Virus record (IMG/VR): IMGVR_UViG_3300049595_005065
DNA length: 64,000 nt
Source of the DNA: a virus
Lineage: Duplodnaviria > Caudoviricetes
Direction: 5' to 3' (one strand)
The notes below the pieces were generated by a model. The model did no database searches. It saw nothing but the letters and a program-made list of their open reading frames with translations, and was not told where the DNA came from. Shown here in pieces: positions 5,823 through 49,248 of the stretch. A program made the position numbers and the translations under genes. The stretch's first letter is position 1. Each line of letters begins with the position of its first letter.

Positions 5823-5864
5823 AACGCGTACTGGAAGTCGTAACAAGGAAGGATCCTGTGGCGC

Positions 5865-5928
5865 GGGCCCCGGGCGCAATTCGGTTGCGCGGAGTATCTC
5901 CTCCAGGTTCAAATCCTGGCGGGGCTCA
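5865..5928 (+). ncRNA. tRNA-like cloverleaf with a truncated anticodon arm
   Basis: 8-bp acceptor GGGCCCCG/CGGGGCTC (one G-U); 1-nt linker; D arm GCGC-AATTCGGTT-GCGC; mini arm GGAG-TAT-CTCC; canonical T arm CCAGG-TTCAAAT-CCTGG; no encoded CCA. Confidence 0.65.
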
Positions 5929-45805: not shown

Positions 45806-45839
45806 AAACCCGCGGGCTTGGATGCTCGCGGGTTTTTTT
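45806..45839 (+). terminator. Intrinsic terminator
   Basis: CCCGCGGGC-TTGGAT-GCTCGCGGG followed by T7. Confidence 0.85.
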
Positions 45840-46156: not shown

Positions 46157-46325
46157 GCATGCAATTGTTTCCTCCGCCGGGCTCTTCGGCGGGGTGTTCG
46201 GATACGTGTCGGCCGAGACAGACGCGTGGACTCTGGTGGGTGCCCTGGTCGGGATGTTTAGCGCCGCGCTCGTGGCGGACGTCCTGACCCAGCCTATGGA
46301 GGTTGATGAAGATGGCAATGATTGA
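46143..46325 (+). CDS. Small two-TM protein
   Basis: AAGGAGG RBS; two hydrophobic segments. Confidence 0.55.
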   Translation: MLFVKHAIVSSAGLFGGVFGYVSAETDAWTLVGALVGMFSAALVADVLTQPMEVDEDGND

Positions 46326-46587
46326 CGACCAACTTGCGCGGTGCAAGTACGCCGTGTCGCGTCTCATGCAGGCGCTGCCGAAACACTACGTCGGCGAGAC
46401 GCGGGTTGAGATCGCGGCCCATGAGATCGACGACCTCAATGTTTTTCTGCAGAACGCGGAAAACATGATCAATATTGCCCGCAACCTGGGCGAGATCCGG
46501 GTGGAATTGTTGACCCGGCTCGAGCGAGCGGAGGCCTTTCTTCAGCTTTATCCGGAGCCCTGGGCCGCGTACAAGGCGCAGAGCTAA
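46303..46587 (+). CDS. Hypothetical protein
   Basis: GGAGG RBS. Confidence 0.6.
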   Translation: MMKMAMIDDQLARCKYAVSRLMQALPKHYVGETRVEIAAHEIDDLNVFLQNAENMINIARNLGEIRVELLTRLERAEAFLQLYPEPWAAYKAQS

Positions 46588-46611
46588 CACACCTAGAAAA
46601 GGAGATTTCCT

Positions 46612-46995
46612 GTGGAGGAGACGCAGATTCCCGCGCGGCAGCGGGTCAAGATCACGGTCGAGCTCGAATGCGACCGCGAGCAATTTCCGGGCTGGGGCTA
46701 CGATCCCCAGGACATGGCCAAGGCCGCTGCCGAGCGTGCCGCGGCGGTGCTTGCGTCTTACAACCCGACGGTGACGCGCGCGCTTTGGTTGCCGGGCGAT
46801 GAGCGCTGGCTCGTTGACGAGATCGCTCGGGTGAAGAACATCGACAAGTCCCAGGCGCGACGTCTGATCGCCACGGGGCAGGTTGAGGTCAACTTCAAAA
46901 AGGTCGAAGACATGTCGACCACGGTGCGGCCTGGCGACACAGTCGAGGTTTTCAACAACACCCGGTTGATCAGTCAGGGCTGGCCAGTGAAATAG
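46612..46995 (+). CDS. S4-domain RNA-binding protein
   Basis: LVDEIARVKNIDKSQARRLIATGQVEVNFKKV..STTVRPGDTVEV. Confidence 0.8.
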   Translation: MEETQIPARQRVKITVELECDREQFPGWGYDPQDMAKAAAERAAAVLASYNPTVTRALWLPGDERWLVDEIARVKNIDKSQARRLIATGQVEVNFKKVEDMSTTVRPGDTVEVFNNTRLISQGWPVK

Positions 46996-47000
46996 TTTTA

Positions 47001-47070
47001 CGGGCAGAGCGCAACGCAGCGCCTGGCAGTACCCAACCTGCCAGCTCGGGTTCGTTCCCCGACTGCCCCC
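47001..47070 (+). ncRNA. Non-canonical tRNA-like cloverleaf
   Basis: Acceptor GGGCAG/CTGCCC; 1-nt linker; D arm GCGC-AACGCA-GCGC; arm CTGGCAG-TACCCAAC-CTGCCAG; T arm TCGGG-TTCGTTC-CCCGA; no CCA. Confidence 0.65.
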
Positions 47071-47186
47071 TGTGCGCGACCAGTCAACCCGCCTCTTTTC
47101 AGCCACTCTACGGGTCCAAACCGATGGGTGAGGGGCTATGGCAGCTGGTCGTGCTGGTTCGTTTCCTGGTCTCAAGGAGGATTCCA

Positions 47187-47528
47187 ATGGTTCGCATTGT
47201 TTTTGCTCTCGTGCTCGTCGGCCTCGGTGTGGGAATCGCCGAGGCGGCTCCGCGTCGTACGAACGTGACGTACAGCCAGCCCACGCCGAGCTACGTCGTG
47301 GACAGCGAGGGCAGCGACCAGGCCCGCTGCCAGCAGGAGGCCAACATCATGGCCTCCCGCCGGTTCTGCGGGCACGTCGGTTCGTGCATCGGCCGGTTCG
47401 AGGGTGTTGGGATGGGCAGCTCGCCCAACTGCAACACCTGCACGCCGGGCTCGGGCATGCGCCTGACGGGCGATGCCTCGGCGCAGGGTTCGGACGGCCG
47501 GTGGTACCGCGTCCGCAGCTGGCGCTGA
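47187..47528 (+). CDS. Secreted Cys-containing small protein
   Basis: AAGGAGG RBS; signal peptide; five Cys. Confidence 0.7.
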   Translation: MVRIVFALVLVGLGVGIAEAAPRRTNVTYSQPTPSYVVDSEGSDQARCQQEANIMASRRFCGHVGSCIGRFEGVGMGSSPNCNTCTPGSGMRLTGDASAQGSDGRWYRVRSWR

Positions 47529-47597
47529 TAGACTGAGGTCAACACACCGGGCGCACCGCTCGCCGCAAGGCTGACGTGCATCAAGGCCCGGTTTTCG

Positions 47598-47643
47598 GGG
47601 CGGGCGCTACTGGGGAACTCGGTGGCGCCCGCCCTTTTCTTTT
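47598..47643 (+). terminator. Intrinsic terminator
   Basis: GGGCGGGCGC/GCGCCCGCCC stem followed by TTTTCTTTT. Confidence 0.85.
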
Positions 47644-48899: not shown

Positions 48900-49245
<346 letters not shown>

Positions 49246-49248
49246 TTG

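Follow-up and report, generated by a model that had tools for sequence, protein, structure and literature searches.

A tRNA-like RNA family downstream of a mosaic S4-type gene in uncultured freshwater jumbo phages

Known tRNA-like RNAs and the phage locus

RNAs that resemble tRNAs, or that derive from them, are known as a kind. The mascRNA and MEN-beta RNAs (MALAT1, NEAT1; RF01684) are freed from longer transcripts by tRNA-processing enzymes, and bacteriophage T4 encodes, within its tRNA region, the stable, tRNA-like and non-decoding RNA C and RNA D ('species 1 and 2'). In plant mitochondria, t-elements act as tRNA-like RNase P/RNase Z signals at mRNA ends (Forner et al. 2007, PMC1920247). Here we analyse a tRNA-like element of 67 nucleotides (nt) and four arms at positions 47002-47068 of a 64,000-nt stretch of viral DNA (Duplodnaviria; Caudoviricetes; IMG/VR record IMGVR_UViG_3300049595_005065), which is referred to below as the window. 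The source is an uncultured freshwater (lake) jumbo phage of ~200 kb and ~62% GC, of whose genome the window forms a part. The element is almost certainly a selected, structured and non-decoding tRNA-like RNA: what is new is the family to which it belongs, the frozen 8-nt tRNA-Gly-like loop and the fixed 6-nt distance from an upstream mosaic gene of S4 type.

Comparison with the described systems reveals both shared and divergent features. Like t-elements (PMC1920247), for which cutting by RNase P and RNase Z has been proposed as the origin of mRNA ends, the phage element presents a non-decoding tRNA-like fold that borders protein-coding RNAs or separates them; t-elements are, however, organellar and had their ends mapped experimentally, whereas the present family is encoded by phages and exhibits a fixed 6-nt distance to the upstream stop codon and a full form with an anticodon-like arm and an invariant 8-nt loop. 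An acceptor stem sitting atop a T arm with a UUCR-type loop, together with a reduced or non-decoding middle, is the arrangement expected of t-elements and mascRNA, and the phage family displays it. In case of mascRNA and MEN-beta, the acceptor and T arm are likewise combined with a reduced and non-decoding middle, but these RNAs are eukaryotic, and the element at 47002 possesses a full-length anticodon-like arm of 7 base pairs (bp) and gives no match to RF01684. T4 RNA C and RNA D are similarly phage-encoded and tRNA-like, but their fold differs, and there is neither a sequence relation nor a tie to an S4 gene. Finally, tRNA-Pyl and the reduced mitochondrial tRNAs, which are charged decoders with 7-nt loops and U33, resemble the element in the 1-nt connector, the small D loop devoid of GG, the long anticodon stem and the very short variable region; in contrast to these, the element has an 8-nt loop with A33, and homologues of it drop the arm entirely.

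Structure, distribution and selection of the family

The cloverleaf is the minimum-free-energy (MFE) structure of 47002-47068 (-34.9 kcal/mol; z -2.9), with 3 of 200 shuffles being as good. All four helices of a canonical tRNA are present in this fold and each of them shows covariation; the arms follow each other closely, with no linker (0 nt) between the D arm and the anticodon-like arm, a 1-nt linker before the T arm and no variable region (Table 1). The cloverleaf details given in an earlier note on this DNA (the 1-nt connector, the D stem, the 7-bp arm with its 8-nt loop, the linker and the lack of CCA) were all found to be correct in the MFE fold. The bases flanking the 6-bp acceptor stem pair in none of the eight full forms of the family (C.C, C.U, U.U, U.C, C.A), and C47001, mismatched with C47069, may be nucleotide 1 of the RNA. 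A scan of the 64-kb window for a T arm combined with an acceptor stem returned exactly two elements (47002-47068 and 5866-5926), against a mean of 0.3 in shuffled sequence.

Element copies were gathered by exact-pattern scans, via neighbouring proteins and with a covariance model trained on the first four copies. This yielded 13 copies in 12 uncultured phage contexts: eight full forms (the window, L009, L001, L002, L003, L054, L057 and L059) and five mini forms (a second copy in L002, L006, L050/L051, L052 and L058), the latter sharing the acceptor, D and T arms with the full forms, but with the anticodon-like arm reduced to a mere 1-5 nt. The shared core of the family consists of the acceptor, D and T arms. 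The acceptor/T stack comprises 6+5 bp in full forms and 7+4 bp in mini forms; the T loop opens with YUCG in 12 of the 13 copies (in L059, CUCG sits one base in) and the D loop retains at least one G in all 13. Some mini forms, unlike the window element, do have the D-loop GG and A58: the mini copy in L002 displays a canonical elbow (a D loop with GG and the T loop UUCGAUA), and an extra gene of 100 amino acids (aa) lies between the full and the mini copy at L002 8340-8713, so that the two copies flank it in the manner of a cassette.

Pairs were counted on a MAFFT alignment of the eight full forms; the mini forms, which MAFFT misaligned, were instead compared via covariance-model alignments and a manual table. 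Standard pairs occupy 97.2% of the 176 pair cells, and two-sided changes are found at seven pairs (one in the acceptor stem, one in the D stem, three in the anticodon-like stem and two in the T stem). The covariation score was 0.253 compared with 0.146 in shuffles, a value reached by 0/500 of them, and a control in which the 3' partners were slid by 1-3 columns gave at most 50% paired cells and at most four two-sided pairs. Both the acceptor stem and the D stem are paired in 100% of cells; each of them shows a single G-C to A-U double change, to which the acceptor stem adds two changes to G.U, and the second T-stem pair is C-G, U-A, A-U or G-C across full and mini forms. Eight cells are occupied by G.U pairs, which would be A.C mismatches on the opposite strand, and therefore the RNA corresponds to the + strand.

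The cloverleaf is under strong purifying selection on this strand. The window copy of the element shares 96-97% identity with those of L001, L002, L003 and L009, whereas the third codon positions of the conserved downstream gene are 73-79% identical between those genomes and the flanks only ~45-65%; the exception is L009, the closest relative, in which the 60 nt downstream are 90% identical. The earlier note had proposed a new tRNA-like family, to be checked by a covariance model and a search of phage genomes. This search was run and bears the proposal out: the 13 copies are conserved, with compensatory changes in four helices at seven two-sided pairs that none of the 500 shuffles equalled, and Rfam returned no match of any kind up to E 10 across 46900-47200 (the gathering threshold of RF00005 being 29 bits).

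The family is small, not yet catalogued and limited to a clade of uncultured high-GC freshwater jumbo phages, all element contexts belonging to one syntenic phage clade. Close relatives of the source phage are contigs of 204-208 kb, one of which (G001, a complete relative of 204 kb) exhibits direct terminal repeats, and proteins encoded in the window include a PolA-UDG fusion, an SbcC-like ATPase, DnaB and an SNF2 helicase. No DNA match to the element plus the downstream block was found in 50,697 GenBank phage records, and contigs from four DNA runs were short and identical to the window, with no new variants of the element. A bacterial origin or attachment site was considered and rejected: a degenerate pattern run over 185,579 bacterial species genomes gave 6 chance matches, all of which fall within coding sequence and lack a 5' acceptor strand, none being a tRNA and four of them representing one conserved stretch in four Alphaproteobacteria metagenome-assembled genomes.

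Table 1. Features of the element and of its upstream gene in the window.
Feature	Position	Strand	Remark
S4-domain gene, 127 aa	46612..46995	+	Pfam S4 match; stop TAG 46993-46995
Spacer TTTTAC, 6 nt	46996..47001	+	stop codon to first paired base
Acceptor stem, 5' strand GGGCAG	47002..47007	+	pairs with 47063-47068
D arm: GCGC, 6-nt loop AACGCA, GCGC	47009..47022	+	MFE fold; 1-nt connector at A47008
Anticodon-like arm, 7-bp stem CUGGCAG/CUGCCAG	47023..47044	+	8-nt loop UACCCAAC at 47030-47037
T arm: UCGGG, loop UUCGUUC, CCCGA	47046..47062	+	1-nt linker at C47045
Acceptor stem, 3' strand CUGCCC	47063..47068	+	no CCA encoded after it
Discriminator-like base, then conserved trailer CUGUG	47069..47074	+	N-CUGUG kept in 7/13 copies despite otherwise unalignable flanks

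The loop, the upstream gene and the neighbouring RNAs

The element departs from canonical tRNA in both loop and elbow. Where a canonical anticodon loop has 7 nt, U33 and a purine at position 37, the loop UACCCAAC has 8 nt, and the base preceding the NCC triplet is A instead of U33 in all eight full forms. The canonical elbow contacts (G18 and G19 with psi55 and C56, and the T54-A58 pair) are not preserved: the D loop AACGCA contains a single G and no GG (G18/G19), and the T loop has U at the position of A58. ARAGORN reported nothing either at the window element or at the 12 other copies. A tmRNA-type acceptor, marked by the alanine identity pair G3:U70, is not found either: seven of the eight full forms have G-C at 3:70, L054 being the only one with G.U, and RF00023 gave no match at the element. 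Given A33, the 8-nt loop, the missing GG and A58, the misses by tRNA finders and the five arm-less homologues, decoding is therefore unlikely, and this includes frameshift suppression, at which the earlier note had hinted and against which the A in place of U33 and the homologues without an anticodon arm speak directly.

The loop of the full forms is frozen in sequence: it reads UA-N-CCAAC in 8/8 (N being C, C, G, A, C, G, A and A) and is invariant bar N, while three pairs of the stem beneath it covary. It looks like the tRNA-Gly pattern (U-U-NCC-A-A) with U33 changed to A and an extra 3' C, and the arm as a whole could be a tRNA-Gly arm minus one G of the 5' stem strand, which would leave C39 unpaired; we regard this as a lead and not as a demonstration. 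A frozen loop with a free wobble-like base points to a specific partner, which would recognise the loop by its sequence. Pairing partners of the loop within the locus were tried and rejected. In the downstream gene, GUUGG occurs in the Val-Gly codons of an EGVGMG motif and does not covary with the loop N, and in the window a GUUGG at the GGC resume codon of the transfer-messenger RNA (tmRNA) fits CCAAC, but L002 and L009 have AACC-GGC there with the loop unchanged.

The protein encoded directly upstream matches the Pfam S4 family (PF01479) at residues 65-111 with 35.1 bits and E 1.1e-8 (gathering cut-off 22.8 bits), and together with the positions in Table 1 this confirms the placement of the element 6 nt past the stop codon of an S4 gene. 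Residues 63-127 of the protein form the S4 domain, and residues 1-62 a conserved region (Ndom; motif PGWGYDPQD) without a Pfam match; in the AlphaFold model, the predicted local distance difference test (pLDDT) is 76-88 over the S4 part and low, at 54-77, over Ndom. Foldseek searches with the S4 model returned uS4, RluF, RsuA, Hsp15, YlmH and TyrRS, all with E 1e-3 or weaker and with uS4, RluF and RsuA placed above Hsp15 (11th) and YlmH (45th); a PDB sequence search placed uS4 on top and YlmH at E 0.41, no NCBIfam subfamily was reached (sub-threshold matches to uS4, RluA and TlyA only), and weak Pfam matches (E 9.5e-4 and 3.6e-3, below the cut-off) pointed to the C-terminal domain of TyrRS. 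The phage S4 domain is thus of a generic kind and has no specific likeness to Hsp15 or RqcP in NCBIfam, the PDB sequence search or Foldseek, so that an assignment to this type, as suggested earlier, could not be upheld. With the known binders uS4, Hsp15, RqcP/YlmH, the N-terminal domains of RluF/RsuA and the TyrRS C-terminal domain it shares the S4 fold, but it falls into no subfamily and is joined to a unique N-terminal domain without a Pfam match. Relatives of the protein are rare: 22 were found among 1.84 billion representative proteins, those contigs that were looked up being uncultured and phage-like, one (P0001) is 99% identical and absent from gene records, and the 50,697 GenBank phage records contained no protein match to the S4 gene.

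Across the family, the upstream gene or genes (46303-46995 in the window) are a mosaic of three modules, A (coiled), Ndom and S4, which are fused, split, reordered or lost in at least five arrangements in the window, L001, L002, L003, L006, L009, L050, L052, L054, L057, L058 and L059. S4 is present in the directly upstream gene in 9 of 12 contexts and missing in L003, L058 and L059, and the spacer from stop codon to first pair is exactly 6 nt in 10 of 12, regardless of the terminal domain of the upstream gene. In L053, moreover, the S4 homologue is followed 5 nt past its stop codon by an ordinary tRNA-Lys (1897-1958) in the same slot. Given the S4-less contexts and this tRNA-Lys, what stays constant is a tRNA slot within a mosaic region and not a strict S4-RNA pair: what the contexts have in common is a position after a mosaic small gene usually ending in S4 and upstream of a conserved gene for a 113-aa protein. 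The protein-RNA pair proposed in the earlier note thus stands as a frequent adjacency with a near-constant spacer and fails as a strict pairing.

In the second element of the window, at 5865-5928, an 8-bp acceptor stem is combined with a D arm and a canonical T arm, and between these arms sits a 4-bp stub closed by a 3-nt loop. The same architecture had been ascribed to both elements. The two do agree in their connectors, in a GCGC/GCGC D stem whose loop begins with AA, and in having no CCA; they do not agree in the anticodon arm, in place of which the second element has the stub with its 3-nt loop, nor in the T loop, which is canonical there, and this second element escapes the covariance model built for the 47002 family. 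Positions 5866-5926 give a weak match to RF01684 (23.9 bits, E 0.0066), whereas the 47002 element gives none. ARAGORN labels 5851-5928 (+) as tRNA-Ala(TGC), a call that is probably wrong; an alignment with a tRNA-Thr of G001 shows similarity in the T arm and acceptor stem only.

The 113-aa protein encoded downstream of the 47002 element (47187-47528, +) begins with a stretch resembling a signal peptide and has a core rich in cysteine (motif CQQEANIMASRRFCGHVGSC); it is conserved in 27 jumbo-phage contigs and has no Pfam family and no match in the 50,697 GenBank phage records. In low-GC relatives (19 of L010-L030), a canonical tRNA-Gly(UCC) is located ~10-95 nt after the homologue of this gene, and no tRNA-like element lies upstream of it. 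This tRNA-Gly resembles the element in its loop (U-x-NCC-A-A, then CCUG) and D arm (GC.C-AA..GCA-G.GC), with 12 of 15 anticodon-arm positions matching by eye once one base is deleted; both adjoin the same 113-aa gene, but on opposite sides, and the element differs from it in A33, the 8-nt loop, the 7-bp stem, the lack of a variable loop, the 1-nt connectors, the lack of G18/G19/A58 and the 6-bp acceptor stem. Between the element and the 113-aa gene lies a second conserved structured RNA (47081-47147, +), an extended hairpin that is interrupted by internal loops and capped by the invariant apical loop GUCCAAA, which is present in the window, L009, L050, L052 and L054 and absent from L001, L002, L003 and L006; RNAalifold identified six pairs with two-sided changes, and there was no Rfam match. 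Other tRNAs also occur close to full elements: a canonical tRNA begins ~10 nt past the element in L059 (1605-1635), and a tRNA-Lys lies ~150 nt past it in L057 (825-898).

The tmRNA that had been placed 1.8 kb downstream of the element is real (48900-49247, +; Rfam 121 bits) and is found at a similar distance in L002 (11040-11387) and L009 (5853-6212); the proximity of the two RNAs is synteny within a tRNA region. The phage tmRNA tags are short (GTFNSAPALAA, GASAPALAA, GAPLALAA), and all of them resume at a GGC glycine codon and not at the usual alanine codon. The complete relative G001 carries tRNAs for Lys, Thr (two copies) and Asn plus the tmRNA and no tRNA-Gly; SmpB, a CCA-adding enzyme and a FemAB-type transferase were not found in it. 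A translation-rescue or decoy system formed together with the tmRNA, as envisaged in the earlier note, finds no support, given the lack of SmpB in G001, a loop-tmRNA complementarity that exists only in the window and is absent from L002 and L009, and an S4 domain without specific likeness to Hsp15 or RqcP.

Candidate functions

The element lies on the strand of its neighbours, with a stop codon 6 nt upstream and the next start codon 118 nt downstream. In the window, no promoter-like or terminator-like site occurs on the + strand between 45835 and 47597, the nearest terminators being at 45806-45835 and 47597-47635; since nothing of this kind separates it from its neighbours, the element is most simply part of the operon RNA. 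The core shared by full and mini forms, an acceptor/T stack of 11-12 positions with a D/T elbow, corresponds to the features by which RNase P, RNase Z and the CCA-adding enzyme recognise their substrates, and therefore a role like that of t-elements is favoured; the canonical tRNA-Lys in the same slot of L053 also counts in its favour. Processing on its own leaves the frozen loop and the fixed spacer unexplained, and for this reason a loop-specific partner is added for the full form. The resulting proposal, a tRNA-derived and non-decoding RNA that would be cut from the operon transcript by host RNase P/RNase Z and that, as a full form, would bind such a partner, has in our judgement about an even chance of being correct.

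Under this processing proposal, the element would be transcribed within the operon RNA, and its acceptor/T-arm stack and D/T elbow would be recognised by the tRNA-maturation enzymes of the host. RNase P would then cleave 5-6 nt past the upstream stop codon and so end the upstream mRNA, whilst the 3' side would be trimmed by RNase Z or exonucleases, after which CCA could possibly be added. The operon RNA would in this way be split into separately stable upstream and downstream mRNAs, the latter with the conserved CUGUG as its 5' end, and a stable RNA of ~67-69 nt would be released. In case of the full form, the invariant UA-N-CCAAC loop would provide a second, sequence-specific contact with a partner, for which glycyl-tRNA synthetase (GlyRS) and the neighbouring S4 protein are candidates. 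GlyRS reads C35 and C36 but not N34, and because of this it is a natural candidate. Several observations weigh against the proposal: a pure processing role would explain neither an invariant 8-nt loop over a covarying stem nor a spacer fixed at 6 nt, the stack of the full forms is 6+5 bp plus a mismatch instead of the canonical 7+5, and the sign of a tRNA-Gly origin is confined to a short motif, the covariance model giving phage tRNA-Gly 18 bits, which is no better than tRNA-Leu, -Lys or -Thr (17-23 bits).

The partnership with the S4 protein can also be taken as the primary function, with the released RNA serving as ligand of the upstream S4 protein in a particle that acts on ribosomes or tRNA metabolism, or that autoregulates the operon mRNA. 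S4 domains bind structured RNA including tRNA, as is known for the TyrRS C-terminal domain, Hsp15 and RqcP; the weak sub-cut-off matches to the former, the S4 gene upstream in 9 of 12 contexts and an adjacency that outlived domain shuffling through at least four S4 arrangements (Ndom-S4, A-S4, truncated A-S4, S4-linker-Ndom) are consistent with such a particle. It is nevertheless rather unlikely, with the element following S4-less genes in L003, L058 and L059, a generic S4 domain without an NCBIfam subfamily, and contexts that are not independent because all of them lie in one syntenic phage clade. A related and somewhat more specific idea, which we consider unlikely, is that the full form is a ribosome-excluded tRNA-Gly mimic forming a ribonucleoprotein (RNP) with the S4 protein that, in the role of decoy, sponge or amino-acid donor, would divert or sense the metabolism of glycyl-tRNA: C35, C36, A37 and A38 would still be read by GlyRS or another loop-specific factor, and A33, the 8-nt loop, the 1/72 mismatch and the altered elbow would exclude the RNA from EF-Tu and the ribosome. 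Were the element instead a working, if odd, tRNA, it would be charged, probably with glycine via C35/C36, and would decode GGN, shift the frame or donate glycine off the ribosome in the manner of the non-proteinogenic tRNA-Gly known from staphylococci. The pattern U-A-NCC-A-A-C in 8/8 full forms, in which only the wobble-like base varies, is as expected if C35, C36, A37 and A38 matter, G001 has no tRNA-Gly of its own, glycine (GGC) is the resume codon of the phage tmRNAs, and yeast mitochondrial tRNA-Thr is reportedly a natural tRNA that decodes with an 8-nt loop. Set against this are A33 in place of the near-universal U33, the lack of G18, G19 and A58, the mismatched positions 1 and 72, the failure of every tRNA model or finder to recognise the RNA, the anticodon arm missing from five homologues and the lack of a FemAB-type transferase and a CCA-adding enzyme in G001; in addition, an N that is C, G or A in near-identical elements would alter codon reading between sister phages. 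We therefore hold a working tRNA to be quite improbable.

A decoy or sponge, in which a mimic of a host tRNA soaks up a host factor (a tRNA-directed defence nuclease, an acetyltransferase toxin or a synthetase) and thereby protects or reprograms translation, would fit an RNA that is tRNA-shaped, strongly conserved and non-decoding with a tRNA-Gly-like loop, and phage tRNAs can counter tRNA-cleaving host defences; the probability of this reading is nonetheless small, as no defence or counter-defence gene was identified beside the element and the mini forms are without the loop that a loop-directed enzyme would need. We give similarly little weight to a cis-acting RNA end that is not excised and either stabilises the upstream mRNA at its 3' end or signals pausing or termination: the element does sit at the 3' end of the upstream cistron, and a GC hairpin with a U-rich tail follows it in L001 and L003 and follows the mini copy in L002, but in the window there is neither a U tract nor a terminator-like site past the element, and a simple hairpin would suffice where a four-way junction, a YUCG T loop and a D arm are kept. 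Least probable by far is a functionless remnant, either a decaying tRNA pseudogene or an attP-like recombination scar. Its appeal lies in a tRNA-derived, non-canonical element within a mosaic region of swapped domains and genes, and in the extra gene between the full and mini copies of L002; this reading is, however, already largely refuted by the covariation, with compensatory changes in all four helices and 96-97% identity compared with 73-79% at neutral sites; no bacterial genome searched has a counterpart, and G001 has direct terminal repeats.

The tRNA finders used for phage annotation skip or mislabel elements such as these. The family provides a natural set of variants that differ in the presence of the anticodon arm and of an S4 neighbour. 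Our findings indicate that, at a fixed position in an operon, a jumbo-phage lineage maintains tRNA look-alikes that do not decode and are strongly selected. If excision by host RNase P/RNase Z is true, phages would use a mitochondria-style tRNA punctuation in order to shape their own mRNAs, and if the full form is a tRNA-Gly-mimic RNP, it would represent a new phage route for manipulating the host translation apparatus.

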